A stretch of DNA of 64,000 nt from a virus: the IMG/VR virus record IMGVR_UViG_3300040770_000547. One strand, 5' to 3'. A program made the position numbers and the translations under genes. Each line of letters opens with the position of its first letter. The stretch's first letter is position 1. Under the pieces are notes generated by a model that worked only from the letters and a program-made list of their open reading frames with translations, made no database searches and had not been told where the DNA came from. Positions 12,894-43,204 of this stretch are shown piece after piece.

Positions 12894-13012
12894 GGAATTA
12901 ATCTTGACGCTGATAGTATGTGCACATATAATTTCAGTTGAGGTACGAGAGATAATCATAAATTAAGTTGTACAGCTTGATTCAATGAAAGGGTTCGATT
13001 CCCGAATTTCCG
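12894..13012 (+). ncRNA. tRNA-like element with non-canonical interior
   Basis: GGAATT/AATTTCC ends, GGGTTCGATTCCC T-loop, followed by GCA; no anticodon arm. Confidence 0.45.
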
Positions 13013-13076
13013 CATAATATGGAGAACTTCAGAAGAGCTATCCAAGTTTAATAAACCATTTAATAACCAAACCATT

Positions 13077-13202
13077 ATGAAAAAGATTTTGTTTTTATTC
13101 GTATTGGCTTTCAGTCTGTTTTCCTTTATGGGAGCTAGAGACTATGTGAAGCCTGTTTCAAGTCATGAAGCTGTATTTGTAGGAAGTACTAACTTTCCCT
13201 AA
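13077..13202 (+). CDS. small secreted peptide (41 aa)
   Basis: MKKILFLFVLAFSLFSF signal-peptide-like start; A-rich leader. Confidence 0.55.
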   Translation: MKKILFLFVLAFSLFSFMGARDYVKPVSSHEAVFVGSTNFP

Positions 13203-13386
13203 AGATCTACAACGGTACAATCAAAAAAGCCGAAGTTCCATAAGGAAAGACAAAAGAATTAGAATACTGCAGGCCTCCTTTATAGTTTGGAACGAGCCTG
13301 AAGTTAGAATTAACATTGTGTATAATATCGTTGCAAGCACAGACTTAAAATCTGGATACTGACAACTATACTATATATAAAATCTA

Positions 13387-13433
13387 AAAATACCCTTGAG
13401 AGGCGAGTGCCGTTTAGGACTCAAGGGTATTTT
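13387..13433. terminator. 14-bp perfect hairpin
   Basis: AAAATACCCTTGAG/CTCAAGGGTATTTT. Confidence 0.65.
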
Positions 13434-13501
13434 ATTAACATGGGGAGGCAACTAAGCTTTCTAATATTACGAAGCCGTGTAATAATATGCATTATAAAAG
13501 C

Positions 13502-13584
13502 GGGTAAGTACTCTAGAAAAGGCGTTATTGTTTGTCGCGGTATACAGTCGGCATACAAGATGGGTTCGATTCCCTACCTATCCA
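13502..13584 (+). pseudogene. degenerate tRNA-like element (possible TGT/Thr remnant)
   Basis: GGGTAAG/CCTATCC-A-CA ends, GGGTTCGATTCCC; arms weak. Confidence 0.35.
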
Positions 13585-13589
13585 CAAGA

Positions 13590-13830
13590 TTGTTCATTGA
13601 CGTATTATGAGTTTTTGCAAGACGGGAGTTCGACTCTCCCCAACTCCACAAATCGAAGACCGTGTATGTTGTCGATGGTGTAGCTAGCCGATATACAAAT
13701 AGCCGAACTTATGGGGTTGCCTGGTTTTGATTGCAATACACAAGTTTTACTGAGAATAGTCCCAACTATAACTCCAAAAGTTATACAACTTTTTAGTGCA
13801 GCTGATTTAGAATTAGCAGCCTAAACGAAA
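13590..13830 (+). ncRNA. ssrA: circularly permuted (two-piece) tmRNA
   Basis: 3' end GACGGGAGTTCGACTCTCCCCAACTCCA (13621-13648) precedes 5' end GGGGTTGCCTGGTTTTGA (13713); G3:U70 pair; tag frame ending ...ADLELAA-TAA (13824). Confidence 0.88.
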
Positions 13831-13833
13831 CTT

Positions 13834-13860
13834 GGGGGAGCGTCAATCCCCCTTTCTTTT
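13834..13860 (+). terminator. terminator after tmRNA
   Basis: GGGGGA/TCCCCC stem then T-rich tail. Confidence 0.7.
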
Positions 13861-13879
13861 TACTCTAAACCCCAAACAC

Positions 13880-14221
13880 ATGAAAAACGAAACACTACCT
13901 AATCCAAAGATTACGAGAACTCGTAATTCTGTGAATGTAAATTGGTTATCTGTATATAATGGTAACTCTGATAACGTTATTCAAATTACATCAAAATCCG
14001 AGTTCTTTAATACTCCTCTTGTTTATAAAGTAACAGAGGATTTAATTATACTTAGAAAAGTCACTATACGAGATAACAAAAGAATAGTAGTACCTAAAAA
14101 AGGCCGCGATTCTGAGTTTTATCGCATGAGCATCATAACTAAATTTGAAATCGAAAACAACAGATACGATTTTGAATTTGATGAAGATGATGAGGATGTA
14201 GTATCTGCTTATTATAAGTAG
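13880..14221 (+). CDS. hypothetical protein (start MKNETL)
   Basis: A-rich leader before ATG 13880. Confidence 0.75.
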   Translation: MKNETLPNPKITRTRNSVNVNWLSVYNGNSDNVIQITSKSEFFNTPLVYKVTEDLIILRKVTIRDNKRIVVPKKGRDSEFYRMSIITKFEIENNRYDFEFDEDDEDVVSAYYK

Positions 14222-14249
14222 CATATTTGTAAATTAATTGAGATCTTTG

Positions 14250-15190
14250 AATTGAAATAACGGCTTGGCGAGCGAAACGTGGGCCGTGGTTCAAAGAATA
14301 TACAACACTAGTCCTGGAATTCCTGGCAAGCCTATGAAGATAGGAACTTGGTAGAGGATAGAGGCACGTAATCCTTCATATTGCATCGGTACAAATAAAC
14401 AAAACCGAGCCGCACAACACCGTGATTCTTTTAGATAACGGAATATGATTGACTACAACCGGAGCAGCACGGATTCAAACTAACTGTACTGTGTCGAACA
14501 GGATGAAATCGATTGATGCTAGCCGTAAGGCAACTAACATCTTGTTGCATTTAAAAAGGGACAAGAAATGATAGGGATTCTGCAGGATCCAGCTATTGAA
14601 TAAGGGTAAGAATAATATCCCCTTAGAACCTCGCTGACACCAGCCAAGTCAGGAGAACAAATCGGGTGGCATCCCTCTAAGCATAAGGAGAACAACAATG
14701 CGCATTAGCATAAGGTGTACAACAATGCAAGTACTGTCGGCCAGCCATGTCAGCTTGGACCCAAAAGTTGGAGTTGATAACTTTGCCGGCAAGTACTTTA
14801 ACCATGCTGAAAAGCAATTGCAAGGAGACTATTAGGTACGTCTTCCCAGAGTAACGTGTGCCAACACCCTGGGTATCTTAGGTCAAGGATGCAATACTTT
14901 TCATAAAGTCTATAATCTGCGATAACAGAATGAATACATCAACCGCGCAACAAGGCGAGTTTAGTTTTTTAGTATGTGAGCGGTAGACACAACTACACAC
15001 AACAAACAAAGATTGCTACTTAAGCTAGTTTATGAACAGCGACTCTGACTCGGGCATCTAATGTACCGGCTAACCTTACAGAGAAAAAGGTGTAATCCCT
15101 TGCCAGTATGATTTTTAGGCAAATGCAAACTTCGTCAATGTTCCTTAGCGTTCGGGTATTAAGTATAAGATAGCATAAGCCTAAAAGTTG
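14250..15190 (+). ncRNA. candidate ~950-nt large structured ncRNA
   Basis: No ORF of 60 aa or more in any frame, elevated GC, many stems with GUAA/GAAA tetraloops and a 13-bp long-range helix. Confidence 0.7.
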
Positions 15191-15192
15191 TT

Positions 15193-15271
15193 GGGGCATT
15201 AGGGCATCAAGGGATTGATGTGATGAGCTGTAACGGAACTCAGCAGGCAGGTTCGATTCCTGTTAGCCTCA
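15193..15271 (+). ncRNA. tRNA-like element lacking a normal anticodon arm
   Basis: GGGGC/GCCTC-A ends, GCAGG-TTCGATT-CCTGT T-arm, two internal hairpins. Confidence 0.5.
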
Positions 15272-15287
15272 CTATTTTAACAACATC

Positions 15288-15585
15288 CAACGCTCAAAGG
15301 AATTAAGAGGGCAGGCGTTATAGTGACCCGCCGAGAATGAATGGTCACTGAATTTCTAAGTAGTAATGGTCATCTTAAGATACCTGAGTAGAGTGAGTAG
15401 TAAGAGTGGTGCCTATATGGTATTTCTGAAATGAACGTAGTAGCTCAAAAAGGCAGATGGACTCAATAGAGAAGATTATTATTGAATTTGCGTGTTCGTT
15501 CAGTCCAGTTTGCATAGCAGGATCGCGCACGTTAAAAACTAAGGTAGGAGCAGTCATCAAGTATGGTGATTGTCTCCCCTTTTTT
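15288..15585 (+). ncRNA. candidate ~300-nt structured RNA ending in a terminator-like hairpin
   Basis: AGTGACC/GGTCACT, GGACT/AGTCC and GGAGCAGTCATCA/TGGTGATTGTCTCC stems. Confidence 0.4.
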
Positions 15586-15612
15586 GTATACTAAGAACTA
15601 ACAACAACTAAC

Positions 15613-16107
15613 ATGGAAGAGTATGTAGATTACCTGAAAGGGAAAATTCAAGAATGCGAGCTGGAAGATATGCACGTATCTGTGTCTGTTTACAAAGAAG
15701 TACTAAATACTTATTTAAGTTTCCTTGATGCCGCCAAGCTGAAAGCATCGTTACATAATAAAGTAGGCATAGTTACAGCAGGCTCAAGACAATTTGGTAA
15801 AGCTGCCAGATTTGCAGAGCTCTATGGTATGATGAAACCTGCAGTTCACATCATGGTGGGCAGCAAAGAGATGCATGACAATATGGAAAAAGCACTTATT
15901 GATGCTGTAGAGCATGTAAAGAATGCACCTATTCAAGGAAGATTTACAGACGCTTTTGAAAAAGAACGCGGTATGAGCATAAACGAGTCCATGGCAAAAG
16001 ACAACAGTATAATGATTACTGCTCTTCCAAAGATGACAAAGCCTCTACTCCCGTTGGATAAATATGGCCAACCGCTTGAATTACCTAAATCCAAATACCA
16101 CAAATAA
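15613..16107 (+). CDS. hypothetical protein
   Basis: Co-oriented ORF, A-rich leader. Confidence 0.78.
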   Translation: MEEYVDYLKGKIQECELEDMHVSVSVYKEVLNTYLSFLDAAKLKASLHNKVGIVTAGSRQFGKAARFAELYGMMKPAVHIMVGSKEMHDNMEKALIDAVEHVKNAPIQGRFTDAFEKERGMSINESMAKDNSIMITALPKMTKPLLPLDKYGQPLELPKSKYHK

Positions 16108-16109
16108 TC

Positions 16110-16328
16110 ATGAACAGCAAATTTATAGGTTACGTAGCAGGGTTGTTGGTAATAGACAGGCAAATGAAAAAATGCTTGGCTGTTGTAAGAACAGCTGGCC
16201 ACCAGAAAAGAACATCAAGCAAGTCTAAGCTGAAGCAGAGTAAGCCGGCGACTAATGCAAATTACAAGAGCACTAAACCGATGAAATCTAAGTCGACCTC
16301 GCAATTTCGAAACAAGTCAAATATCTAA
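16110..16328 (+). CDS. basic hypothetical protein
   Basis: Abuts previous gene; K/S-rich. Confidence 0.65.
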   Translation: MNSKFIGYVAGLLVIDRQMKKCLAVVRTAGHQKRTSSKSKLKQSKPATNANYKSTKPMKSKSTSQFRNKSNI

Positions 16329-16348
16329 CAACAACTAAACTAAGAAAA

Positions 16349-16633
16349 ATGGTAAAGAAAAACACCTCAATTGAATTGGCCGTAGCGCTAATGTTAAAAG
16401 GCATGGCTTATATGTTGTGCATATTAGTTTGTGCAATGTTCCTTCCTTTTATTGTCAGCCTTATCGGAGTGACATTTGTAAAAGAGCTCACATTGGATGA
16501 AGCAGTAAGCTCTCCATTGTTTATCGTTTTCACAGTAATTGGCGGATTTATATCCTTTTTTGTGTTAATGTCAGCTCTTGAAGAACAAACAAAACAAGAG
16601 CGCGCTCAAAGAATCAGTAATTCTATTAAATAG
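16349..16633 (+). CDS. membrane protein
   Basis: Two long hydrophobic segments. Confidence 0.75.
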   Translation: MVKKNTSIELAVALMLKGMAYMLCILVCAMFLPFIVSLIGVTFVKELTLDEAVSSPLFIVFTVIGGFISFFVLMSALEEQTKQERAQRISNSIK

Positions 16634-16699
16634 CATGTAGGAAATTTGTACTAATTTATTATATTCGTAAGTTGCGGTACTAATCGACAAGCAATAACC

Positions 16700-17116
16700 A
16701 TGAAAGAAATAAATAAAGACATTGTAAAAGAAACATCAAATAGGCTGTTGGGATTATGTGAAAACAATCCGGCAGCCTATAAATGTATGATAGAGCTGCT
16801 GTCTTCTAATAGACGTATCGATCCCAGTAACGGTTTTGGACCGTTAGGGGCTGTAGTAACATTACACTCCTCAGGCATAAAAGGCAACAAAATAAATCTG
16901 TTGTTCAACTCAATATGTCAAGGCAACATTGCCAGACTAATAGCCATTTTAAGAGCTGTACAGTTGGGGTTGATCTGTAAAACAGAGGTTCACCAAGCAA
17001 TGTCTATATGTGAAAACTCCAAGGAAGAAGCTCTTGACGTAAGAAACATTTATCATAAAGTCAAAAAATACTTGGCACTCAACTTTGACATAAAGAACGA
17101 GGCCAGGTTCACCTAA
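16700..17116 (+). CDS. hypothetical protein, paralog of 17128-17553
   Basis: Shared IDP...GP...L.S.GI.G and LRA.QLG motifs. Confidence 0.8.
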   Translation: MKEINKDIVKETSNRLLGLCENNPAAYKCMIELLSSNRRIDPSNGFGPLGAVVTLHSSGIKGNKINLLFNSICQGNIARLIAILRAVQLGLICKTEVHQAMSICENSKEEALDVRNIYHKVKKYLALNFDIKNEARFT

Positions 17117-17127
17117 AAACCAAACAA

Positions 17128-17553
17128 ATGGCACACATAGAAAGAATAAACTGGACAGACAGCGTGCCCGATGCGGTAGCTAAAATAGCGGAAGGGAACA
17201 TCGGGGCGGCAGTATGCATTATGGACCTGATGAAACACTCAGAAGAAATAGACCCTTTGAGTTACCTAAAAGTAATAGGACCCGTTATGCTGTTAGACAG
17301 CCTTGGGATATATGGACCAAACGTATGGGTAATATTCAAAGACGTCTGCGAACAGAACCATGCAAGAATGCTCGCAGTGCTGCGTGCCACACAGTTGGGC
17401 ATGCTTTCAAGCGAAGCATTGTTGGAGGTTTCAAACAGGCAGTACAGAAATGAAGGAAAAGTAAAAACAATAGACGTTGCCGAATTATATTTCAAGGTGA
17501 AAGACTTTCTTGAAGACTTCGACCCCAACAACAGGGCCGATTTACATAGATAG
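17128..17553 (+). CDS. hypothetical protein, paralog of 16700-17116
   Basis: EGNIGA...IDP...GP...LDSLGIYG...LRATQLG. Confidence 0.82.
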   Translation: MAHIERINWTDSVPDAVAKIAEGNIGAAVCIMDLMKHSEEIDPLSYLKVIGPVMLLDSLGIYGPNVWVIFKDVCEQNHARMLAVLRATQLGMLSSEALLEVSNRQYRNEGKVKTIDVAELYFKVKDFLEDFDPNNRADLHR

Positions 17554-17591
17554 ACCACAGGGACCTGTAACAAAGCAACTTCCAAAATTAC

Positions 17592-17615
17592 AAGGGTCTT
17601 TAAAAGCCCTTTTTT
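17592..17615 (+). terminator. terminator
   Basis: AAGGGT/GCCCTT stem then T-run. Confidence 0.6.
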
Positions 17616-17635
17616 AATTTAACAACTAACCAACT

Positions 17636-18016
17636 ATGGAAGTAGCAATTAACCATGTGATAGCGATAGCTGAAAAAATCACGAGAATGGAGGTCCTTGG
17701 AGAAGATTCATTAGGCCTTGGAGTACATAAAAATAATTCTGTCCTGTTTGATAAGAAAAACAGAAGCCACTATTTTTATATCGAATACAACAAGAAATTC
17801 AAAACAGCTGTAGTAGCAATATTTATCAAAGAATCTTTAGTGCAGCAAATAGCCATCAAGGCTCATTTCTTAAGAATATCCGGATACGATATTGCAAGCA
17901 GGCTAGAGATCGTAGGCAAAGAAACTATTACTGACGAAGAAATCAGAACAAATTACATCACCCTTCCTCATTTCGTAACACTGAAGGATGAAATCATGAG
18001 AACGTTACAAAAATAA
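17636..18016 (+). CDS. hypothetical protein
   Basis: Co-oriented ORF. Confidence 0.75.
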   Translation: MEVAINHVIAIAEKITRMEVLGEDSLGLGVHKNNSVLFDKKNRSHYFYIEYNKKFKTAVVAIFIKESLVQQIAIKAHFLRISGYDIASRLEIVGKETITDEEIRTNYITLPHFVTLKDEIMRTLQK

Positions 18017-18045
18017 AAGACCAATAAACCCTAACAACAAAAATC

Positions 18046-18288
18046 ATGTTAAAAAACATCAAGAATTCCGGAGCAACTAAAGTATTGACAGTTGTAGTAT
18101 TATTATCATTAGGCAAAGAATCTACTCAAAGAGAGTACAAAATTGCTTTTGCTGAAAATGCAATAGTTGACGAACATGCAGAAGCTGTTAAAGTAGCAAC
18201 GGCTGCTAAGAAAAAGTATACTAGTATTATACGTCTTGGAGGTAACACGTCAGTGTTCACCAGCGTATTGGCAACAACAGAAGTATAA
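18046..18288 (+). CDS. hypothetical protein
   Basis: Co-oriented ORF followed by hairpin 18296-18329. Confidence 0.75.
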   Translation: MLKNIKNSGATKVLTVVVLLSLGKESTQREYKIAFAENAIVDEHAEAVKVATAAKKKYTSIIRLGGNTSVFTSVLATTEV

Positions 18289-18462
18289 TAAAACAAAAAT
18301 CCCCTAAGCAAAGAGCGAAGGGGGTTTTATATAAATCAAGCAGTGAGCCAACGTTAAAGTAAAAGACCAATAATGCTTTAACAACAGTAATGATAAATAA
18401 ACAGAGTAAATAAACAACATTTATTTTAATTACACAAGCGGATCAGCTTAAATCTTACTCCC

Positions 18463-18936
18463 ATGGCTCATATTAATACAGAAAACAAAGTAGATGCCCT
18501 TATTTTATCTAGAAGAGCTAGCCAAAACCAAAATTCACAAAACACTGCAACCTTAAAGGAAGCCTTACATGAATTCATAGGTACAGCTTACATAGTCCAA
18601 AAAGATTGGGGATACGGAGAAATACCGATGTACAAAGAAATGCATAAGATTACAGATATTACAGTAAAAAATGGAGTAGTCTATTTTTTATCAGAGGTAA
18701 TGCTCATAGAAAATGATATCAAGACAGGGCACATCAGTGTGAGTAGAAGCTCCCAGGAAGTGTTACCAGTCGTGTATGAAAAAAGCACAGAGCTCTCAGG
18801 TATATTTTACGAGGAAATAGTTATGTACTATAATAAATCCTTAAGTAAAATGTTCAAAGACTTGAATGACATGATTACAGATCAGCTTGTCATAGGAAGA
18901 CAGAAAAAAGCCATCAAAAACGGAACAGTAAAATAA
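18463..18936 (+). CDS. hypothetical protein
   Basis: Co-oriented ORF. Confidence 0.75.
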   Translation: MAHINTENKVDALILSRRASQNQNSQNTATLKEALHEFIGTAYIVQKDWGYGEIPMYKEMHKITDITVKNGVVYFLSEVMLIENDIKTGHISVSRSSQEVLPVVYEKSTELSGIFYEEIVMYYNKSLSKMFKDLNDMITDQLVIGRQKKAIKNGTVK

Positions 18937-18961
18937 GTCGAAAGACTCTAAAACATACAAC

Positions 18962-19150
18962 ATGCAAGATACTTTAATAGTTATTTTGTCTTTTTTGTTC
19001 TACCCAATTTTCATAGGAGGTATGTTATTTTTATTAAGTTTTCTCATTTCTAAGAATACAAAATCAAGCTTAGAAGAAGGATTTAGATTAACACAAATAA
19101 TGTGGGTAGTGCTAGCAGTAGCAGTACTAATATTTCTATTCAGCTCATGA
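18962..19150 (+). CDS. small 2-TM membrane protein
   Basis: Two hydrophobic segments. Confidence 0.72.
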   Translation: MQDTLIVILSFLFYPIFIGGMLFLLSFLISKNTKSSLEEGFRLTQIMWVVLAVAVLIFLFSS

Positions 19151-19317
19151 TAAAATACGAGTACAAAAAAGAGACGTTAATAGAAAGCACGATAGAAAAT
19201 CGATTAAACGATTTAGGAGGAAAAGGTTGGGAGCTAGTATTGCTTATGCCAATACCACTTAGAGCCAGCCTTGACGCTTTATTTACAGGATATTTTAAAA
19301 GGATCAAAGATTCTTAA
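19147..19317 (+). CDS. DUF4177-like small protein
   Basis: YEYK...LNDLGGKGWELV...YFKR pattern; ATGA overlap with previous gene. Confidence 0.7.
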   Translation: MIKYEYKKETLIESTIENRLNDLGGKGWELVLLMPIPLRASLDALFTGYFKRIKDS

Positions 19318-23997: not shown

Positions 23998-24492
23998 ATG
24001 GAGTACTGTGGGACAATAAGAATATCAAACCCTAAAACGCTGCAAAGCTGGATAGATAGGGGCTGGTATCAAAAAAGTCTATCTGAAGGCTACATATTTA
24101 ACGTAGGTTGCGGAAGATTCAAAACAGAGAAGTGTACCTGCTCAGCTTGTAGAACTAGAAAAAGACCGGAGCTATCTAAAATAGTAAATAAATTTAATAA
24201 TTTAAATATCAATAATATGGAAAATGGATTGAATTTCGGAAAAGCCATTGAGGCTGCTAAGGCAGGCAAAAGAGTGGCAAGAGCAGGATGGAACGGAGCA
24301 GGAATGTTCGCATACATAGTTCCTGCATCACAATATCCTGCTATTACAGGCGTTGCAAAAGAATATTGGGGAGAAGGAAACTTTGTACCTTATCGCGCAT
24401 ATTGGGCTCTTAAAACTGCTCAAGAAGACGTAGCAACCTGGGCTCCTTCTGGAAGCGATTCTCTCGCTGAAGACTGGTCAATACTAGACTAA
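23998..24492 (+). CDS. DUF2829/Tad2-like protein (domain 24217-24492) with in-frame Cys-containing N-terminal extension
   Basis: LNFGKAIEAAKAGKRVARAGWNG and WAPSGSDSLAEDW motifs. Confidence 0.78.
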   Translation: MEYCGTIRISNPKTLQSWIDRGWYQKSLSEGYIFNVGCGRFKTEKCTCSACRTRKRPELSKIVNKFNNLNINNMENGLNFGKAIEAAKAGKRVARAGWNGAGMFAYIVPASQYPAITGVAKEYWGEGNFVPYRAYWALKTAQEDVATWAPSGSDSLAEDWSILD

Positions 24493-26171: not shown

Positions 26172-26636
26172 ATGTCAGGCCATTTATCAACAGAAGAGAA
26201 AGCTTTATTTAAAGCCGAAATAGATGCAATAAGAAGAAAGGATTATGCTTTTTTCATAGAGTTTTTAGAGGCAAACAAAATAAAGTTCAAAAGAACAGGG
26301 GGAACCATTGTGCTAGACGGTATGGTGGTATACGAAGATCTTCAAGTTTCTTTCGGCAGTCCCAAGACGTATCAATACAATCTTGAGACACTAAAAAGAA
26401 AAGTAAGCTCAAATACAGTATTAAGTATAAAAGCTAAGTTTATAGGTGCAAACAGCCTAGGTTACATAACAGGTTTGAATTACATCTTAAATGTACTTCC
26501 ATCTAGTGGTATAACTATATGCAGAAAAGATGGATCAGGTAAATGCGTTTACCAATCCCTAACAGCTTTTCTTGTAAACTGGGATAGCATAGAAAAAATA
26601 ACAAGCGGGAAACCACAAGATCAAGCTAGCCTATAA
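26172..26636 (+). CDS. hypothetical protein
   Basis: Tightly packed. Confidence 0.75.
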   Translation: MSGHLSTEEKALFKAEIDAIRRKDYAFFIEFLEANKIKFKRTGGTIVLDGMVVYEDLQVSFGSPKTYQYNLETLKRKVSSNTVLSIKAKFIGANSLGYITGLNYILNVLPSSGITICRKDGSGKCVYQSLTAFLVNWDSIEKITSGKPQDQASL

Positions 26637-26702
26637 ACGGGGATGCGTGGGAGGATGATAAATAAACACTGTCTGATAAGGGTTCGAATCCCTTTTTCCC
26701 GT
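26637..26702 (+). ncRNA. minimal tRNA-like element (acceptor stem plus T-arm only)
   Basis: ACGGGGA/TTCCCGT, AAGGG-TTCGAAT-CCCTT. Confidence 0.5.
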
Positions 26703-26721
26703 TATTTTAACAACTAAATAT

Positions 26722-30862: not shown

Positions 30863-31768
30863 ATGCAAGTAAAAACGATAAAGAAAATAATCAGTAAAAA
30901 AATGATCGACTGGTTAGAAACTATTCCCAACGAAAAGTTGAGATCTGACGTCAAGAAAAATATCCTCGTATCAGGAGGTTGTATCACATCATTGTTTCAA
31001 GGATTACCAGTTAACGACTACGACGTATACATTCAGGACATGGATGTTCTGATCAGACTGGCTCAGCATTATTACCCAGGAACAACTACCACAGGTGTTG
31101 ATAAAGTGCTTGACGGAAGAAAACGTGAGGACTATCTTAACAATATACAGAGCTCTTTTGAAATTGACGATAACGAATCTGAAGAAGCAGTTCGCTACAA
31201 AACACTTAAACTAGATCAAGTCAAATTGAACATAAGTTCGATAGGAATGAAAAAAGAGCTGATTGAAGGTAAAAAATACCAGGTTGCTTTCTTTTCCCAA
31301 AATGCTATCTCCCTTACAGAAGATTTGCAGATTGTATTAAGATTCAGTGGTAACGTTACTCAAATTCACAAAACTTTCGATTTCGTGCATGCCACTAACT
31401 ATTTCACCTTTGAGGAAGGATTAGTTACAAACGTAGCAGCACTAGAAAGCATATTGACAAAGTCTTTGAGATACCAGGGATCCTTATATCCTCTTACCTC
31501 TGTAATACGTATGAAGAAATTCATACAACGTGGTTGGACCGTAAACGCGGGAGAAATCCTTAAGATGTTGTTCCAAGTGTCTGAGTTAGACCTAAAAAAC
31601 ATAGAGGTGCTAGAAGAGCAGCTTATAGGAGTTGACGTAGCTTATTTTTCGCTACTGATAACAGTGCTAAGAGATACTGAAGGAAAGCTTACCGCTCATC
31701 ATTTATCTGAATTGATAGACAAGGTATTCAATGAATACGAAGAGCCGGTTGACGAAGAAGTTAAATAA
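30863..31768 (+). CDS. nucleotidyltransferase (pol-beta superfamily, CCA-adding/poly(A)-polymerase-like head)
   Basis: VSGGCITS...VNDYDVY and FDFVHA motifs. Confidence 0.72.
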   Translation: MQVKTIKKIISKKMIDWLETIPNEKLRSDVKKNILVSGGCITSLFQGLPVNDYDVYIQDMDVLIRLAQHYYPGTTTTGVDKVLDGRKREDYLNNIQSSFEIDDNESEEAVRYKTLKLDQVKLNISSIGMKKELIEGKKYQVAFFSQNAISLTEDLQIVLRFSGNVTQIHKTFDFVHATNYFTFEEGLVTNVAALESILTKSLRYQGSLYPLTSVIRMKKFIQRGWTVNAGEILKMLFQVSELDLKNIEVLEEQLIGVDVAYFSLLITVLRDTEGKLTAHHLSELIDKVFNEYEEPVDEEVK

Positions 31769-31783: not shown

Positions 31784-32548
31784 ATGAATTATTACTTAGA
31801 CACGGAATTCATAGAAGGACAACAATCTTTACGCCTTTTCGGAATACCTACAAAATCCCTTCCCACCATAGATCTGATATCGATAGGAATAGTGTCCCAA
31901 GATGGCAGAGAATATTACGCAGTTTCCAAAGACTTTAATCTTAAAGAAGCGTGGAATAGAAATCAAAAAAGAGATCACGGAACTGCGTATAACTCGTATG
32001 GCGAAAAGCTTCAGGTAAAAGAATTCTGGATACGGGAAAACGTGCTCAAACCGATATGGAGAGAGTTTGTTGCAAAAGAAACTTTAGATATTGTAAATAC
32101 CGTGCTGAGCAATGGAGCCGCAGTGGCTGATGTCAACATGGATTTTAACAGAAAAACTTTCGAAAAATTACTGCTCAAGCACGGAAAATCCAATCAGGAA
32201 ATAGCAAAAGAAATAAATGACTTTTGTTCTGGTCCTAATGTACAGTTCTACTCTTACTTTGGAAGCTATGATTGGGTGGCTTTCTGTTGGTTATTTGGAA
32301 AGATGATCAATTTACCAAAACACTTGCCAAGATATTGCAGAGACTTAAAACAGATTCTTGACGATAAAGCCGAAGCACTGGCAATGAGAATAGCTTACGA
32401 AAGTGGAAATCACACGGTATGGACCAATGAAAGATGCTTAGCAGACTTAAAAAGTCATAGAGATTACCCCAAAAAAACAAATGATCATATTGCTATAAGC
32501 GATGCAAAATGGAATAAAGAACTACATAAATTCCTTGAGACTAACTAA
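31784..32548 (+). CDS. DEDDh 3'-5' exoribonuclease (Rv2179c-like)
   Basis: YLDTEF, LISIGIV, YDW, H.A..DAKW. Confidence 0.85.
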   Translation: MNYYLDTEFIEGQQSLRLFGIPTKSLPTIDLISIGIVSQDGREYYAVSKDFNLKEAWNRNQKRDHGTAYNSYGEKLQVKEFWIRENVLKPIWREFVAKETLDIVNTVLSNGAAVADVNMDFNRKTFEKLLLKHGKSNQEIAKEINDFCSGPNVQFYSYFGSYDWVAFCWLFGKMINLPKHLPRYCRDLKQILDDKAEALAMRIAYESGNHTVWTNERCLADLKSHRDYPKKTNDHIAISDAKWNKELHKFLETN

Positions 32549-36852: not shown

Positions 36853-36854
36853 AT

Positions 36855-37268
36855 ATGGAAGCAGATAAATTAGGAGGCTATACTGTAAAGGAATGGCGTC
36901 AGATGATAGAAGACAAGGTGGTGGCCGATATATCAGACGAAGTTCTTGAGTTCGTCAAGCCAAATATATTCGAAAGAAAAAATGCTCAAAACAAAGAGGC
37001 CCGTAAAGAATCGGTTACTGAGGAACTATACTACGTAAGAAACGAAGGCTTTCTGGGCAACGCTTTATTGTGGTGGACAAAAGGCTGTAACGGCTATACC
37101 TGCGATATAAATGATGCCCACAAGTTTACGAGAGAACAAGCAGAAAAAACTTGTAAAAGACCTCAAGATTCAGCTTACCTTTGTACGTACATAGACGGAC
37201 TAGAGAAAGCCAAAAAAGTGATAATAGATTCTCAATACGTAGATAAGTCAGAAAGATTATGGAACTAA
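36855..37268 (+). CDS. hypothetical protein
   Basis: GNALLWW..GYTCDI..AH.FT motif. Confidence 0.78.
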   Translation: MEADKLGGYTVKEWRQMIEDKVVADISDEVLEFVKPNIFERKNAQNKEARKESVTEELYYVRNEGFLGNALLWWTKGCNGYTCDINDAHKFTREQAEKTCKRPQDSAYLCTYIDGLEKAKKVIIDSQYVDKSERLWN

Positions 37269-37714
37269 AGTCAATGATCGACTTTGTTTTCTATATAGGA
37301 AACTTAGACATAGCTCGTAAATCATCTCATAAAGAAATGGTTACCCTTATTTTTAATTATGCTCTGCTGCTTAAAGACAAACTATCCCTATGGATGTTTG
37401 TTCCCTGTGATAAAGACGGTAAAATAATGGAAGAACCGCAATCTATAAAAAACACATTTATTCAAAAAAGCGATAATGGAGACTTCTTTAACCAAAAAAG
37501 GTTTCTAGAATATATTGTAAATTATGACCAAGCAAAAAGTAAATGCCTGTTTAAAGATTTCGATTTATGGAGAAGTGGTAACGGCTTTCTAGTAAGAAAT
37601 GCATTTATAAAAATACACGACGTAGAATTTGAAAATGTAACTATAGAATATCTATCTGTTCAAGGAGGTATCTATAGTACTACTCCAGCTTTTATGAACA
37701 AAGTTGGCTTATAG
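37259..37714 (+). CDS. hypothetical protein
   Basis: LWMFVPCDKDG motif typical of flavobacterial phages. Confidence 0.8.
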   Translation: MELKSMIDFVFYIGNLDIARKSSHKEMVTLIFNYALLLKDKLSLWMFVPCDKDGKIMEEPQSIKNTFIQKSDNGDFFNQKRFLEYIVNYDQAKSKCLFKDFDLWRSGNGFLVRNAFIKIHDVEFENVTIEYLSVQGGIYSTTPAFMNKVGL

Positions 37715-37779
37715 AAGCTATAAACAAATTCATTATGGAAAAATTACAAGGTTATTTAACTGAAGTTCTTAATAAACTA

Positions 37780-38185
37780 AAATAAAGTATCCCTGTTAAC
37801 AAAAAGATAAGGCTAAACATTAATCCTTTGGAAGTGCCCATGCAAAATACTTATCGTTCGAACGAAGAAGATACAAGCACCATAATTAAGATATCGGGCG
37901 AAATCCCGGACGTGTAGCTTTCCTTGAGAAAGAAAGTAGAACAGAAGTAAAAGGTGTGCCAAGATAATTGAGCTGCACGCACTACGCGAATGAGCAGCTA
38001 TCCGTAAGGACGCTGAACTAGTAATAGTTTTCTCAGCAAGAATTAAGAAACTACGGGGAATCACTTGTGATGGCCGTGAGTGTAAAATACGTGACCCTAC
38101 TCTTACGGCATTAAAGTAGATGTAAATCGAAAAAGTACTGGTTGGTACGTGAGTAAGAAAGAGGGTGCTAAACAATCTAAAACTA
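37780..38185 (+). ncRNA. candidate ~400-nt structured ncRNA
   Basis: No + strand ORF; GAAA and GUAA tetraloop hairpins, 6-9-bp stems. Confidence 0.48.
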
Positions 38186-38192
38186 AGCAACA

Positions 38193-38471
38193 ATGAAAAA
38201 AATATTATTATTAACAGTCTGTATTCAATTACTAGCATCTTGCGGTTATGCATGTATAGACACCAGTAAACTCGTGGTGATTACCTCAATAGAATCTGCA
38301 GGGGCTAATAAGTGCGACTATTATGGCTACGGTAATTCCGGTATGACTTATAATATTTGGACTAGCGAATTGTTCAAAATGAGAGACATATGTGGTAAAT
38401 TCCAAATAGGCGATACTATTACATTTACAAAAGTAAAAGCATACAAAAACACTTCTGTGAATACCAATTAG
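38193..38471 (+). CDS. lipoprotein
   Basis: MKK-hydrophobic-LASC lipobox. Confidence 0.75.
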   Translation: MKKILLLTVCIQLLASCGYACIDTSKLVVITSIESAGANKCDYYGYGNSGMTYNIWTSELFKMRDICGKFQIGDTITFTKVKAYKNTSVNTN

Positions 38472-38474
38472 AGG

Positions 38475-38692
38475 TGGTAAATATCCGCTAGTACAAACAA
38501 ATTCACATAAGTAACCGGTTAAACTGAGGCCCCTTGAGGGATAGTGTAAGACTGTAGACAAGCCTCTGTGAAAGCAAGCTTCTTTAGTTATCGGATTAAA
38601 CTTTTGATACGGGTCATGCGCAGCCCCGATACAAGACTGGAAGAAACCAGAGCTATTAAAAATTTATTTGATAAGTTCCCTCACATGAGGGC
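38475..38692 (+). ncRNA. candidate structured RNA
   Basis: GAGGC/GCCTC multibranch, CTGG/CCAG and CCCTCA/TGAGGG stems. Confidence 0.35.
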
Positions 38693-38695
38693 TTT

Positions 38696-38878
38696 GGGGA
38701 GGTGATGTAACTGGCAGGCATGCCTGCGGTAATGCAGCAGGTGGTAAGGGCAATAATGAAAGTCATCAGGAATCAGGCCTGATTTTTAAGGTGATGGACA
38801 AGAATGACCCAAAAGTGAAAGCGGCAATTGTACATTACCCGTGAAAGCTCCGTGCAGGTTCGAGTCCTGCTCACCCCA
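38696..38878 (+). ncRNA. expanded tRNA-like RNA (183 nt) with 112-nt variable-region insert
   Basis: Acceptor, D-arm ATGT/GCAT, CCTGC/GCAGG stem with 9-nt loop, T-arm GCAGG-TTCGAGT-CCTGC, ends ACA. Confidence 0.72.
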
Positions 38879-38934
38879 CAAACCACACATTGAAAAACAA
38901 ACACAGTTATGATACATTAAACAGCAAGAGAAGT

Positions 38935-39137
38935 AGGGGCACTGAAAATTTTGTGATATAGGCATCATAATGCACTATCAAGATAACCGGAAGCATAGAT
39001 GAGGAAGGTTAAGTGCCAGGTTTGTTGAGTAAGATAAGCTCTTGTTACGTTGCCTCCGAGTAGGACAGTACGTACTTGAAGGACTAAGTGAACCTTGTAG
39101 AGTAATATCCCTATCTTGAAGGATGGGTGGTTTATAA
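38935..39137 (+). ncRNA. candidate structured RNA
   Basis: GGCACT/AGTGCC closing helix and further hairpins; no ORF on +. Confidence 0.3.
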
Positions 39138-39338
39138 GGCCGGATGGCGTAGAGGCATACGCTAAGGTTATAGGCCTAGAATGGATTATCAAAAAGCCTA
39201 TCTGTAAGACAAGTCAGGTAAATAAGCGGCAAGATAGGATAGTCCAGCAAGTTCTGTGAAAATAATAACTATTATCCCTGTAAAGGTGCTGACTAACACA
39301 GAATATAATTCATGCAGGTTCGAATCCTGCTCCGGCCA
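39138..39338 (+). ncRNA. expanded tRNA-like RNA (201 nt)
   Basis: Perfect GGCCGGA/TCCGGCC acceptor, D-arm GCGT/ACGC, T-arm GCAGG-TTCGAAT-CCTGC, ~150-nt interior, ends ACA. Confidence 0.72.
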
Positions 39339-39370
39339 CAAACAGTATTTTAATTAAACAACTAACAACC

Positions 39371-40264
39371 ATGCTTGAGATAAAAAATCAAAAGACCAAA
39401 ACCACGGCATGTAGAGAAAACGGCAGAAGCGCAGACTTTACAAGCGGTAATTTCATCTTAGGCTGCTCCCACAAAAAAGGAGATACTTATGATAATCCCT
39501 GCTCTTATTGCTATGTAGCAAGATTCGGCAGACAAAAATTGTACGTCAATACTAACACAGATGAGTTGTTGGCAGAGTGCGACAAAGCCATACAAGACCT
39601 GCCTTTCCCTAGAGTACCTAACCAAGTAGATGAGAAATACTACTACGTTGACATCTCTTGTGATACAGATATTAATCTGCATTGGAACGACTATGATTGG
39701 ATTTATGTGTTTGATTATTTCAAGAAGCATCCCAAGCTAGCAGCTACTTTTGCTACAAAATGGGTGAATACAAAACTGCTGGACTATGTTCCTGAAAACA
39801 AAATCAGAGTAAGAATGAGCTTGATGCCTGAGAAAATGAGAGCTATACTTGAAAACGGTACCAGTCCTATAATAAAAAGAGTTCAGTTCCTGGAGAAGCT
39901 TTTCCAAGCAGGATACTCTACGCACATCAATTTCAGTCCAATTATTTACCACGACAAAAAACTGAGCGGGTACAAAGAACTCTTCAACATCATTAACAAC
40001 GAAGTATCAGAGGAGTTTAAAAAACAAGCCGGTCTCGAATGTATTTTCCTTACTCACAATGCTAATCTTCACAAAATAAATTTGGAAAAAGGCCTTTTAA
40101 AGCAAGAAGAAATACTTTGGACACTAGAGAACCAAGAACAGAAAATCAGTCAGTATGGAGGCTCAAACCTGCGGTACAATCAACGTGTAAAGCCAGCTTT
40201 AATTAGAGCTTTTACAAAGTCGGTAAACCAAGACCTCAACATACCTATTAGGTATATATTTTAA
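39371..40264 (+). CDS. spore-photoproduct-lyase-like radical SAM protein
   Basis: GC-x11-CSYCY, DISCDTD, FATK, RVRMSL, GYSTHINFSPI motifs. Confidence 0.78.
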   Translation: MLEIKNQKTKTTACRENGRSADFTSGNFILGCSHKKGDTYDNPCSYCYVARFGRQKLYVNTNTDELLAECDKAIQDLPFPRVPNQVDEKYYYVDISCDTDINLHWNDYDWIYVFDYFKKHPKLAATFATKWVNTKLLDYVPENKIRVRMSLMPEKMRAILENGTSPIIKRVQFLEKLFQAGYSTHINFSPIIYHDKKLSGYKELFNIINNEVSEEFKKQAGLECIFLTHNANLHKINLEKGLLKQEEILWTLENQEQKISQYGGSNLRYNQRVKPALIRAFTKSVNQDLNIPIRYIF

Positions 40265-40267
40265 AGA

Positions 40268-40380
40268 AGATCCAAGCAGCAAGGATGTGCAAATAAAACT
40301 GCAGATATGGCCCCTCTACATGTGGGCTCGTATAAAAGGACGCAGGCTTTTTGGCTAGCAGGAATAGACTGCTTTTTTTA
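40268..40380 (+). ncRNA. structured element ending in a T-run
   Basis: AAGCAG/CTGCTT closing pair, internal TGCA/TGCA and GCCC/GGGC hairpins. Confidence 0.3.
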
Positions 40381-40471
40381 GTTTAAATAAATATTCAATT
40401 CAAAGTAAAGCTATATGGCTTGTAAGGTCATTTCAATAAGAAAATGTAATATCTTTGAAAAGAATTGTTAA

Positions 40472-40588
40472 AAATAAATACACGTGTTGCAAAAGTCGAA
40501 TGCAAGCGGCAAACTTAGAAGGAGTAATTACCCTCGACAGCAGCAGGTGCCTTGTGGATCCCTGGACAAGCGCAACACGTTTATTTTA
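40472..40588 (+). ncRNA. multibranch structured element
   Basis: ACGTGTTGC/GCAACACGT perfect closing helix plus AAAATAAA/TTTATTTT. Confidence 0.4.
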
Positions 40589-40632
40589 TAAATTACCCTG
40601 AATTTATTTACTAACCTATACATCTAACCAAA

Positions 40633-40941
40633 ATGAAAAAATTATGCGCGTCTTTTGCTGTACTTATCCTAGTTAGCTCTTTAACTTATTCTGTAGTTTA
40701 CCTATTAAGCCAGAATCCAAATGCTTTAGAGTGGGAAGCAAATATCCAAAACATATCGATTGCTATTGTTGTCAACATTACCCTTTTTGTATCCTTATGG
40801 ATGTTTGAACAAAAATGGTTTGCAATCACTGAAAGAATTAAAGCAAAGCCAATAAAAAAAGATTTTAATGTTTTTATTGACAAGATTCGAGGAGAAGAAT
40901 ACATGAACGGTAATATAATAAAAACGCAGCTACAAAATTAA
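40633..40941 (+). CDS. 2-TM membrane protein
   Basis: Two hydrophobic segments. Confidence 0.75.
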   Translation: MKKLCASFAVLILVSSLTYSVVYLLSQNPNALEWEANIQNISIAIVVNITLFVSLWMFEQKWFAITERIKAKPIKKDFNVFIDKIRGEEYMNGNIIKTQLQN

Positions 40942-40943
40942 CA

Positions 40944-41144
40944 ATGGAAAAAAGCTATAATTTCAAAATGCAAATGGGGTGGTGTTCAGTTCTTAGCTGG
41001 GCAGCTACTCTATCTCTAGCTTTTAAAGCCCCAGAGAAAATAGATGATTGGATGGTAATTCCATTCGGGGCAATAGTATTTACGATTATCCACTTCAAGA
41101 TGAGTATGCTTATCTCAGAATACAAAGATAAATCAAAAAACTAG
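40944..41144 (+). CDS. small 2-TM membrane protein
   Basis: Two hydrophobic segments. Confidence 0.72.
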   Translation: MEKSYNFKMQMGWCSVLSWAATLSLAFKAPEKIDDWMVIPFGAIVFTIIHFKMSMLISEYKDKSKN

Positions 41145-41300
41145 TCATGGTAGTTACAGGACCACGAACACTAGCAGATTACTTAGCCGTGCAGAAAACG
41201 ATAACAGGTATTCTAGACAGTCGTTACTGCACTTGCCAGATGAAAAAAGACTTGAACGTAAAGCTCAACAGAGTTAAAGAAAAAATAAAAAACCTCGGCA

Positions 41301-41723
41301 ATGGAGATATATAAAAAAGTGGAATATATCCACAAAGATAAAGCGCAAAAAATATATAAGGATATAGCAGAAAAGCAGTTTATTATGGCTTTTTTCAAGG
41401 AAATGCCCTTAGATAAATTAAAAAAGCTGATAAGCTTCAAAGAAACAGATCCAGACAAAGAAGAAGAGTGGAAAAACAAAGATCAGGTAGAGATGCTGTG
41501 CCATCTCAGAGACACAAACAGTCTGCTGCTCTCCTGTCATTTAGAAATAGGCCCTAAGCCTGTTGATGACACCTTCACTCTAAATTTCGCAGAGTGGTTG
41601 CGAAAAGAGTCTTACGATGTTGGAGACAAGTGGTATTACCAGCAAGACAATGAATTATACACCTCGGCTGGAATGCTTTCCATTTACAGGGCAGTATTAT
41701 CTGTTGATAAAAACAAAAATTAG
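41301..41723 (+). CDS. hypothetical protein
   Basis: FAEWL...ELY motif. Confidence 0.78.
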   Translation: MEIYKKVEYIHKDKAQKIYKDIAEKQFIMAFFKEMPLDKLKKLISFKETDPDKEEEWKNKDQVEMLCHLRDTNSLLLSCHLEIGPKPVDDTFTLNFAEWLRKESYDVGDKWYYQQDNELYTSAGMLSIYRAVLSVDKNKN

Positions 41724-41871
41724 CCATGGATCTTAATAGATTCTCTGTAAATTTTATTTGTATGTTTACACAAATAATGTGGTTTTACGTAATGGGGCTT
41801 ACTACTCCGTTTCAAATAAGAAGCTATGTGACTACCTGTGGAGCAAGAATTGAACTAATGCGTTAATAAAT

Positions 41872-42195
41872 ATGAGAACAGAAAAACACACACAGAAAGT
41901 AATTTTGTTGGTAATTTGGGGATTACTAACAGCCGTATTACTTGCATTAAGCTGGTTTCACTTTGCCTGGCAATACCTGGGCATAACAACCGGTATCCCA
42001 AAAAACATAACTAACAATTTTAGCTCAAGTTGGGAAGCTTATAGTTATTTTTTCTCCAGAGACTACGGTACAGGAGGATTAATTTATATCACGCTATTTG
42101 GTTACTATTGGTGGCTTACTAGTAAAGCTTTCTTGTACATACTGAAAAAGCAAAAAAGAGACAGTAAAAAAAGTAAATATTATGGACACAATTAG
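41872..42195 (+). CDS. 2-TM membrane protein
   Basis: Two hydrophobic segments. Confidence 0.75.
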   Translation: MRTEKHTQKVILLVIWGLLTAVLLALSWFHFAWQYLGITTGIPKNITNNFSSSWEAYSYFFSRDYGTGGLIYITLFGYYWWLTSKAFLYILKKQKRDSKKSKYYGHN

Positions 42196-42397
42196 AATAA
42201 AATGTAACGTAGCAAAAATTACTAGTTACGGAAACGGTGGAGGTACAAAAGTAACGTTAATGCCTGTTACAGGTAATAGCGAAGAAAACAAACAGTTTTG
42301 GAACAATGTACCTACTGGAAAGATAGTTCTGCACGTAGATGCTGAACCGTGTGGTTTTGAAAAAGGAGAGTACTATGTAGACTTTACTAAGCTATAA
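42182..42397 (+). CDS. conserved small phage protein (SEENKQFW..PTG...YYVDFT family)
   Basis: Recognisable motif, function unknown. Confidence 0.8.
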   Translation: MDTIRIKCNVAKITSYGNGGGTKVTLMPVTGNSEENKQFWNNVPTGKIVLHVDAEPCGFEKGEYYVDFTKL

Positions 42398-42678
42398 TGT
42401 ACACTCCTTTAATTATTGAGAAGAAAGACATACTGGCCCCAGGTACCGTTATATTAAGCGGTAATTTCAAATTGGTCAAGAAAATAGAAGATTTAAACGA
42501 GTTTTGGGCAGTGTTAAAAACACAAAAATCGTTTTATGCAAGGCATAGAATGTACCCCACCTCCTTCTTTTTTTCTTGGACATTAAGAACAATAGACGCC
42601 TGGATAAAGGCCGGTTACTTCTGGACTGTTGCACCTTGCGGGAAACCAAAGCGCGCGAATTTCCAGTTAAATAAATAG
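42397..42678 (+). CDS. hypothetical protein
   Basis: TAATG overlap. Confidence 0.75.
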   Translation: MYTPLIIEKKDILAPGTVILSGNFKLVKKIEDLNEFWAVLKTQKSFYARHRMYPTSFFFSWTLRTIDAWIKAGYFWTVAPCGKPKRANFQLNK

Positions 42679-42685
42679 CCCTTAA

Positions 42686-42880
42686 CTTACCGAGATGATA
42701 AAAAAAACTAAATTAACGAAGTTTTATGTATTCTGTGGAACTTGGTAAGTAAAGTAAGCTTGCTGCTGTTTTCGGTTGAAGCCTGAGAATCAGCGAGGAC
42801 GATGGACAGGCAACCGTCAAAACTCGGAGTCCTCATTACGGTAGCGAAACGGCTCTGGGCACGAAATCCAGGGCCGTTTT
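42686..42880 (+). ncRNA. candidate structured RNA (four hairpins)
   Basis: 10-, 7-, 6+5- and 12-bp stems in series. Confidence 0.45.
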
Positions 42881-43064
42881 ATATTTAATACAATTGTAAA
42901 ATAATTCAGGTCATGATGCAAAACATGTACATTGCTTATATGAGAGGTTTTGAAAACAAACCTAAGCCTAAATATATCAAAGGAAGCCTTGTCGAAAAAG
43001 AGTACGATAAAGGCAAAAAAGACAGAGTAAATAAATTACCTAACAGGTATTTAAAGTCTTAAAT

Positions 43065-43204
43065 GGAGGCATAGCTGTTAAGATTGCATTCTAACACAGT
43101 AAGTGGGTCGCCGATGAGCTGATATTACTGCACAACATGCGCGCTAAAGATGTAAGTGATCAGTTATGTACGCGGCAAGGGAGGTTCGATTCCTCCTGTC
43201 TCTA
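43065..43204 (+). ncRNA. expanded tRNA-like RNA (140 nt)
   Basis: GGAGGCA/TGTCTCT acceptor, GGAGG-TTCGATT-CCTCC T-arm, ends ACA; no canonical anticodon arm. Confidence 0.55.

Follow-up and report, generated by a model that had tools for sequence, protein, structure and literature searches.

The 64-kb stretch of DNA analysed here (hereafter the window) belongs to a JGI metagenome contig of 167,412 nt that derives from an uncultivated phage (IMG/VR record IMGVR_UViG_3300040770_000547), and scattered over the window are seven elements, E1–E7, that have the shape of a tRNA without a usable anticodon arm (Table 1). The window has a G+C content of 37% and carries nearly every gene on the + strand; a tRNA cluster opens it, and an early/accessory region comes after. 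Its start codons are not preceded by Shine-Dalgarno sequences, its protein matches to known phages are remote only (rIIA, ~24% identity), and blastn against 50,697 deposited phage genomes returned no DNA-level relative of the window and no match to the RNA island, to E5–E6 or to one member of the RNA family described below. An original prediction, made by a model from the sequence alone, had placed all seven elements between genes and on the + strand, and each of them is indeed situated between + strand genes.

In the 64 kb, we found 12 copies of the T-loop word GGTTCRANTCC, always on the + strand, against a mean of 0.10 and a maximum of 1 in dinucleotide shuffles. Five of these matches lie in the tRNA cluster (51–960) and the remaining seven are exactly E1–E7, which bears out the T loop predicted at seven sites. 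The predicted acceptor stem can be drawn at the same sites, as the 7-nt strand directly 3′ of every T arm can pair with the 5′ end of its element, exclusively by Watson–Crick pairs in E6, completely but with G–U pairs in E4 and E7, and over six (E2, E5) or five (E1, E3) of the seven positions elsewhere. In E4–E7, an acceptor of 7 bp stacks on a T arm of 5 bp that has the T-loop consensus, whereas E3 has five acceptor pairs and two mismatches, and E1 and E2 have T stems of 3 bp. Judged by acceptor pairing alone against shuffled upstream sequence, the 5′ end stands out for E6 (P ~ 0.01) and marginally for E4 (0.07), and alternative 5′ partners are present for E1, E2, E4 and E7. The 5′ ends of E5, E6 and E7 are backed independently by U8 and a D arm or by a UAGCUG start, and the covariance-model alignment agrees with them. 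The N-CA tail, predicted to be mostly kept, follows five of the seven elements (E3 has A-CT and E4 T-AT) and also three of the six cluster tRNAs and the transfer-messenger RNA (tmRNA) of the phage.

A 5-bp anticodon stem with a 7-nt loop bearing U33 and a purine at position 37 occurs in none of the seven, in line with the original prediction. The position of the anticodon arm is taken by a 13-nt hairpin in E6, by an arm of 4 bp with a 10-nt loop in E3 and by an arm with a 9-nt loop in E5; no comparable structure exists in E4 or E7. ARAGORN with default settings calls none of the elements, as had been expected, and with introns allowed it calls E6 alone, with a poor anticodon stem. Rfam likewise recognises none of the seven as a tRNA, whether the whole window is judged by the gathering score or by E ≤ 1, or positions 38600–43300 by E ≤ 10. 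Fold energies compared with shuffles are informative for E6 alone and marginally for E3. No insert motif is shared between the elements, the recurrence of GTGAAA falling within the shuffle range.

Table 1. Positions of the tRNA-shaped elements and of other features in the window.
Feature	Position	Strand	T-loop word	Description
E1	12894–13012	+	12992	T loop GGGTTCGATTCCC on a 3-bp stem; acceptor 5/7 (7 bp with one bulged base); discriminator G, then CA
E2	13502–13584	+	13563	83 nt; acceptor 6/7 with G3:U70; A73; 3-bp T stem; one long hairpin
E3	15193–15271	+	15250	79-nt four-arm RNA; acceptor 5 bp and two mismatches; T arm; A73
E4	26637–26703	+	26681	67 nt; 7-bp acceptor; 5-bp T arm; 34-nt poorly structured interior; discriminator U
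E5	38696–38878	+	38857	acceptor 6/7; 3-bp D stem with GG loop; perfect T arm; A73; trailer CAAAC
E6	39138–39338	+	39317	perfect 7-bp acceptor GGCCGGA/TCCGGCC; U8, G9; 4-bp D arm with GG loop
E7	43065–43204	+	43183	7-bp acceptor (two G–U); UAGCUG tRNA-like start; perfect T arm; A73; trailer CAAAC
tRNA cluster	81–1048	+		opens the window; early/accessory region comes after
Possible eighth element	348–421	+		in the tRNA cluster; good acceptor, class-II-like D arm and T arm; no credible anticodon stem
tmRNA, circularly permuted, two-piece	13589–13824	+		Rfam RF04321, 50.8 bits (gathering score 47); neighbour of E2, outside the set of seven
Tad2-like protein	23998–24492			E = 2e-21
Gad2 homologue	30863–31768			precomputed Pfam match on the 99%-identical relative L264 and on L009
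Rv2179c-like exoribonuclease domain	31784–32548
SPL-like radical-SAM protein	39371–40264
Acb2/Tad1-hairpin match	45161–45412			weak; precomputed in the 99%-identical L264

E5 has every part of a class-II tRNA, but its 5-bp anticodon-like stem closes a 9-nt loop, GGUAAUGCA, and its variable region measures 112 nt. Within that insert, CAUUACC is complementary to GGUAAUG of the anticodon-like loop, a putative pairing with an estimated chance probability of ~0.02; the corresponding candidate pairing in E6 is AUAGGC:GCCUAU. In E6, the 13-nt hairpin is accompanied by ~140 nt folded as two long extra arms, followed by a perfect T arm, A73 and the trailer CAAAC; its fold has a z-score of −4.3 and was equalled by none of 200 shuffles. 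In E7, two hairpins stand where the D and anticodon arms would be. U8, G9, a short stem and the GG are retained in the D arms of E5 and E6, whose type is ambiguous in comparison with 675 phage tRNAs.

The frame of E5 and E6 recurs in other phages. In IMG/VR we searched for the 3′ module common to the two elements (the T arm plus TC...CCA) and took 119 matches, 81 of which were tRNAs called by ARAGORN, mainly tRNA-Tyr and tRNA-Met, and 38 of which were uncalled. Most of the uncalled matches are 100–205-nt elements with perfect 7-bp acceptors, and many uncalled elements, from IMG/VR and JGI, combine a tRNA-Leu D arm (TGGCGGAATTGGTAGACGC) and A73 with unrelated interiors; their acceptor stems show repeated compensatory changes. 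When metagenomes were scanned with a degenerate 3′ word of E5, E6 and E7, 98 of 119 among the matches listed were tRNA-Tyr genes, and the matches listed included no direct homologue of E5–E7, only further leucine-frame elements. A 156-nt leucine-frame element (GGTGGTA...TGCCACCA) is nearly unchanged, with two D-loop variants, at at least 11 metagenome loci including L146 and L164; three of its loci (L164, L188 and L190) are labelled human gut.

From 15 elements in unrelated viral and metagenome contigs we built a covariance model, R1, whose base pairs were limited to those of the acceptor, D and T stems, and ran it over the entire window with filters off. R1 matched E6 (56.9 bits, E = 3e-10) and E5 (50.2 bits, E = 8e-9) over their full length and at the ends given in Table 1, in comparison with 21.9 bits (E = 0.008) for the genuine tRNA-Ser of the window. 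E7 was matched at its ends with a borderline 18.9 bits (E = 0.03), and E1–E4 gave no full-length match. A custom covariance model, which the original prediction had put forward as a check, thus recovers E5 and E6, E7 at the borderline and none of the other four. Outside the window, R1 finds a 102-nt anticodon-less leucine-frame element (55.8 bits) at positions 340–441 of L002, a distant IMG/VR relative with 43% SPL identity; its T arm differs (ACAGGTTTAAATCCTGT), it adjoins a tRNA-Arg, and ARAGORN does not call it. The true tRNA-Leu of phage T4 scores 41 bits with R1, which confirms the frame type as leucine. An expanded interior together with A73 is found in E5, E6 and E7. Among 128 open reading frames (ORFs) neighbouring 25 family members no Pfam family is recurrent, DUF2828 standing beside only two of the 25, and this lack of a recurrent protein neighbour fits a dependence on host enzymes; the RNAs probably do not act with a phage protein dedicated to them.

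E5 and E6 are thus clear members of a widespread phage family built on a leucine-tRNA-like frame with a 110–140-nt insert, and the membership of E7 is borderline. The proposal that the seven elements form a single family does not hold, because R1 relates only E5 and E6, perhaps with E7, while E3 and E4 are independent and E1 and E2 weak. In the literature we found general mentions of phage tRNA-like structures and no description of the leucine-frame family, which is apparently undescribed.

Relatives of the window allow conservation and turnover of the elements to be followed. In L015, a 2.3-kb JGI contig, E6 is identical over 150 of 150 nt, insert included, next to an SPL gene with 93.3% DNA identity, so that the neutral probability of such a run is 0.933^150 or ~3e-5; together with the fold z-score of E6, this identity indicates that the insert itself is constrained. 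Another contig, L139, begins inside the T arm of E7 and agrees with the window at 53 of 53 positions, which comprise the 3′ 26 nt of E7 and run on through trailer and leader to the start codon, whereas the downstream DNA is ~72% and the neighbouring protein 57% identical. E6 and E7 thus appear to be under strong constraint, which contradicts for these two the alternative, raised with the original prediction, that the elements are unconserved decay products. E1–E4 could be compared only in relatives that are 97–99% identical and differ mostly by indels (L259 and L264–L267), a comparison uninformative on selection.

The set of elements differs between close relatives. Directly after the SPL stop codon, L015 carries a 731-nt insertion (1078–1810) that is absent from the window and contains three more tRNA-shaped elements, with T arms near 1200, 1440 and 1790. 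One of them is minimal, one has a class-I frame with a 16-nt anticodon loop, and L015c, with ~50 extra nt, passes the Rfam tRNA threshold at 33 bits. Conversely, E5–E7 are all absent from L009, whose SPL protein is 84% identical. Given the insertion in L015, the elements are gained and lost between close relatives as cassettes. Five IMG/VR records at ~42% SPL identity contain zero or one T-loop word each, and exact words from the E6 insert and the E7 3′ module have no match in IMG/VR or GTDB genomes. Two non-coding stretches of L009 (1560–1640 and 2985–3070), at places where the window has other genes, hold a common CCTTGAGAAAG...GAGGC motif and possibly represent another repeated RNA element.

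E3 and E4 are distinct small tRNA-shaped RNAs that are independent of the E5/E6 family. The D arm of E3 is a 6–7-bp stem with a 4-nt loop, as in tRNA-Sec, its third arm has 4 bp and a 10-nt loop, and its fold z-score is −1.9; with the tRNA-Sec/allo-tRNA model RF01852 it reaches 21.4 bits against a gathering score of 47. A metagenome protein scan with the gene downstream of E3 returned no relative. E4 fills an intergenic gap exactly, beginning right after a stop codon and ending 18 nt before the next start. It has an alternative 5′ end at 26605, and in the 97%-identical L259 it is one T shorter, which makes the acceptor/T-arm stack flush.

The T stems of E1 and E2 consist of three G–C pairs only and the folds of both are no better than shuffles (z-score −0.7 for E1). 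E1 has an alternative 5′ partner at 12757. Inside it, at 12904–12932, lies a sigma-70-like promoter match (TTGACG-17-TATAAT, 11/12), the best of its region; if a promoter of this type is in use in the host, the 5′ strand of E1 would lie outside the transcript. E1 is doubtful, and its membership in the set uncertain. A near-consensus promoter of the sigma-70 type is odd in a genome whose genes have no Shine-Dalgarno sequences.

E2 ends four bases upstream of the circularly permuted tmRNA, which ARAGORN misses. The tmRNA has the acceptor GGGGTTG/CAACTCC with G3:U70 and a tag frame that ends ...AADLELAA followed by a stop codon, and, with a terminator at 13834–13852 on its 3′ side, it seems to be transcribed as a single unit together with E2. 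G3:U70 and A73 of E2 are alanine identity marks that the tmRNA of the phage carries too. E2 is not itself a tmRNA, having no tag reading frame and no pseudoknots, and in alignments to the Rfam tmRNA models it is no more than a leader without structure. More likely, E2 works on behalf of its neighbour: it could fix where the acceptor piece of the tmRNA has its 5′ end, or it could be a mimic that accepts alanine. Exact words from the tmRNA T arm have no match in IMG/VR or GTDB genomes, and the distant relative L007 has an ordinary one-piece tmRNA in place of the permuted one.

The surroundings hold further features of note. Homologues of anti-defence proteins (Tad2-like, Gad2 and a weak Acb2/Tad1 match) are interspersed among the RNA elements; for Gad2, a Pfam scan of the window protein itself gave no match to this or any other family. 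Long ORF-free stretches adjoin the elements in a genome that is otherwise gene-dense (12479–12893, 14250–15190, 15275–15600, 38880–39137 and 40265–40632), and no Rfam family was found in these five at E ≤ 1. The element at 348–421 in the tRNA cluster may be an eighth non-decoding tRNA-shaped RNA: the Rfam tRNA model gives it 44.6 bits, ARAGORN by default passes over it, and at low stringency it is given a two-base “anticodon”. Elsewhere in this part of the window, positions 899–972 hold a gene that resembles tRNA-Trp(CCA). Its anticodon loop (CUCCAAC) is good, its D arm is merged into a 10-bp extended anticodon helix, and neither ARAGORN by default nor Rfam calls it. Positions 1–72, ahead of the first called tRNA (81–169), contain, at 48–72, the T arm AGAGGTTCGAGTCCTCG and the 3′ acceptor strand of a tRNA or tRNA-like gene that was likewise missed by ARAGORN and Rfam.

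How might these RNAs work? The explanation we prefer, tentatively, is that the tRNA frame recruits the tRNA-maturation enzymes of the host and that in the large elements the insert carries the function. The acceptor/T-arm stack, the canonical T loop and the tRNA-type 3′ trailer retained in the elements would be the recruiting features. Features of this kind are read by RNase P, 3′-end trimming enzymes, the CCA-adding enzyme and T-loop modifiers. With the GG of their D loops kept, E5 and E6 should in addition be able to form the tRNA elbow. The host tRNA pathway would excise each RNA from the phage transcript and confer tRNA-like stability on it, the anticodon arm having been lost or swapped for an element-specific insert. 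As the insert of E6 is invariant and strongly structured, and as the family keeps its frame while swapping the interior, the insert is probably the working part, in E6 above all, and would probably act in trans in the conflict between phage and host. Of the roles raised with the original prediction (decoy, uncharged-tRNA mimic, processing signal and scaffold with cargo), the scaffold with cargo would suit E6 best, and E3, E4 and E7 would be independent variations on this design.

Several observations weigh against this explanation. For E1, E2, E3, E5 and E7 the acceptor pairing of the 5′ ends is at chance level. The interior of E4 is short and unstructured (z-score +0.2), with no obvious cargo. 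The training set of R1 was chosen by the T-arm word of E5 and E6, which makes their scores partly circular, a concern that the matches in L002 and T4 reduce without removing it. The perfect conservation of E6 and E7 could stem partly from recent recombination rather than selection. Antisense matches of the inserts to the window reach 11 nt at most, which is chance level and offers no insert target; antisense regulation of the window's genes was rejected on the same ground. Finally, processing, CCA addition and stability are deduced from anatomy, and transcription and any function are putative.

The main rival explanation, which seems unlikely, is that the frame itself is the function and that the RNAs are decoys for factors reading the acceptor end, for which Cas12a3 (which cuts CCA tails), CapRel/FaRel2-type toxSAS (which pyrophosphorylate the CCA end) and MenT/AbiEii nucleotidyltransferases would be candidates besides synthetases, EF-Tu and RNase P. 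Acceptor, T arm and trailer are the sole parts common to all seven elements, toxSAS and MenT inspect the acceptor end (PMC11559606, PMC7450476), the region holds anti-defence homologues (Tad2-like in the window itself, Gad2 and the weak Acb2/Tad1 match via L264), gain and loss among close relatives suits arms-race genes, and E4 barely exceeds the minihelix. A pure decoy, however, needs no conserved 140-nt insert, and that of E6 is invariant and highly structured; nor would one decoy require seven designs, and no defence system of the host is known. That several bacterial immune effectors attack the tRNA acceptor end provides concrete candidates for what such mimics might counter. A role in cis, which we rate as quite unlikely for the set as a whole, would make the elements punctuation, that is, RNase P or 3′-end cleavage marks that separate RNAs and mRNAs and leave the excised piece as a by-product, as in mitochondrial tRNA punctuation and MALAT1-mascRNA. 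Such a role fits E2, four bases before a tmRNA acceptor piece whose 5′ end must arise by cleavage, and it may apply to E4, E6 and E7, which abut start codons: E4 lies between a stop and a start codon, E6 ends 32 nt before the start of the SPL-like gene and E7 21 nt before the next gene. The perfectly conserved block of L139 runs from the T arm of E7 through the leader to the start codon, and E1 and E3 come after long ORF-free stretches. Yet a minihelix suffices as a cleavage signal, leaving the conserved, structured inserts of E5 and E6 unexplained, and family members in other phages occur in varied contexts with no fixed neighbour.

Two further explanations would deny the elements a non-decoding role or any role. 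That they are decaying tRNA pseudogenes or chance matches is very unlikely and concerns mainly E1 and E2, with their 3-bp T stems, imperfect acceptors at chance level and folds no better than shuffles, to which a strong promoter-like site overlapping E1 and the uninformative comparison of E1–E4 in 97–99%-identical relatives may be added. Against it, the exact 11-nt T-loop word at every site cannot be chance, conservation in E6 and E7 is much higher than in the DNA flanking them, and E5 and E6 have relatives in many unrelated phages. It is least likely that the elements are decoding tRNAs after all, whose inserts are spliced out by an unusual route, as suggested for the “enigmatic introns” of Lak phages, or whose loops, for example that of 9 nt in E5, read codons in an atypical manner. 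If introns are allowed, ARAGORN takes E6 for a tRNA-Val(AAC) with a 125-nt intron, but the stem has a G·A mismatch and the anticodon is split. The E5 loop includes UAA, a tRNA-Leu anticodon, L015c lies over the Rfam tRNA threshold despite its ~50 extra nt, and the tRNA introns of Lak phages are also perfectly conserved (PMC6784885). In none of the seven, however, can any flanks be paired into a proper stem of 5 bp that closes a 7-nt loop with U33; the inserts of E5 and E6 sit in the variable region and not in the anticodon loop, and no RNA ligase or splicing endonuclease was found among the 40 window proteins scanned. A self-splicing (group I) intron was rejected as a candidate: the inserts, at 30–140 nt, are too short for a core of more than ~200 nt, no Rfam intron family matches at E ≤ 1 and the flanks restore no anticodon stem. 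Splicing into ordinary tRNAs, which the original prediction had named as a possible refutation, is unlikely for the same reasons.

If the tRNA frame is a scaffold for cargo, the inserts would be a large untapped set of natural functional RNA domains. We consider it possible, though on the improbable side, that the frame serves more widely as a phage cassette for the expression and stabilisation of a large and quickly evolving set of structured RNA effectors against host immune or translation-control factors. LeuRS or AlaRS might then charge the RNA anticodon-free, and either the swapped-in domain or the exposed acceptor end would neutralise host factors; this genome would hold seven or eight RNA effectors beside its protein anti-defence genes. 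In this genome, such RNAs are numerous (seven or eight), diverse in design, in at least two cases strongly conserved, and exchanged by close relatives. Since the leucine-frame family escapes standard tRNA finders and Rfam, the class is systematically under-annotated in phage genomes.

Phage tRNA-like stable RNAs have been known since the species 1 RNA of T4 in the 1970s, and to our knowledge no function has been assigned to any of them. Species 1 RNA (rnaC, 139 nt), which like species 2 RNA (rnaD) is a stable phage RNA co-transcribed with tRNAs, is the closest named analogue of the elements; its T4 genome record assigns it no function. Its T arm is canonical (CCGGGTTCGAATCCCGG), its closing helix resembles an acceptor, its trailer is the same ACAAAC, and its expanded interior contains no anticodon. 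It is not homologous to the elements, as R1 matches only the T arm of rnaC (12.4 bits, local), and the likeness is one of design, not of descent. Moreover, T4 has two such RNAs inside its tRNA cluster, whereas here at least seven are scattered over the early/accessory region, two of them on a leucine-tRNA frame. E5, E6 and the family resemble class-II tRNA-Leu (RF00005) in U8/G9, in a D stem that is short and has GG in its loop, in A73 and in the T arm, and the D arm of the family members in viral contigs is the tRNA-Leu consensus; in contrast to tRNA-Leu, E5 and E6 have no 7-nt anticodon loop, and their variable region is 110–140 nt instead of ~15. LeuRS does not need the anticodon.

Among the smaller elements, E2 resembles the tRNA-like domain of tmRNA in its G3:U70, A73, T loop and lack of an anticodon, and it lies directly upstream of the tmRNA of the phage, from which it differs by the absence of tag frame and pseudoknots. 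E3 shares with tRNA-Sec the shape of the D arm and a possible 9/4 branch, but has a single further arm with a 10-nt loop. The comparison with YrlA and other bacterial Y RNAs and with plant-virus 3′ tRNA-like structures, drawn in the original prediction, is apt in that all are non-decoding RNAs with partial tRNA mimicry; beyond this it is a loose analogy, with no Rfam match to YrlA or Y RNA in the window, no Ro60/TROVE match among the 40 proteins scanned from these 64 kb of a 167-kb genome, and viral tRNA-like structures forming the 3′ ends of RNA genomes.

A second parallel is offered by the tRNA genes of Lak megaphages, whose “enigmatic introns” are inserts that do not change at all from cohort to cohort and that some related genomes have and others lack (Devoto et al, 2019; PMC6784885). 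Compared by description only, both are phage tRNA-shaped genes with conserved, variably present inserts, but the Lak inserts are modelled as anticodon-loop introns of typed tRNAs, whereas the flanks of the inserts studied here restore no anticodon arm. The design that we favour for the large elements also has a man-made counterpart. Ponchon and Dardel reportedly engineered tRNA scaffolds for recombinant RNA expression in 2007, with a cargo RNA replacing the anticodon arm. In these scaffolds of the same design, the frame gives processing and stability in bacteria, and phages may have arrived at it for the same reason.

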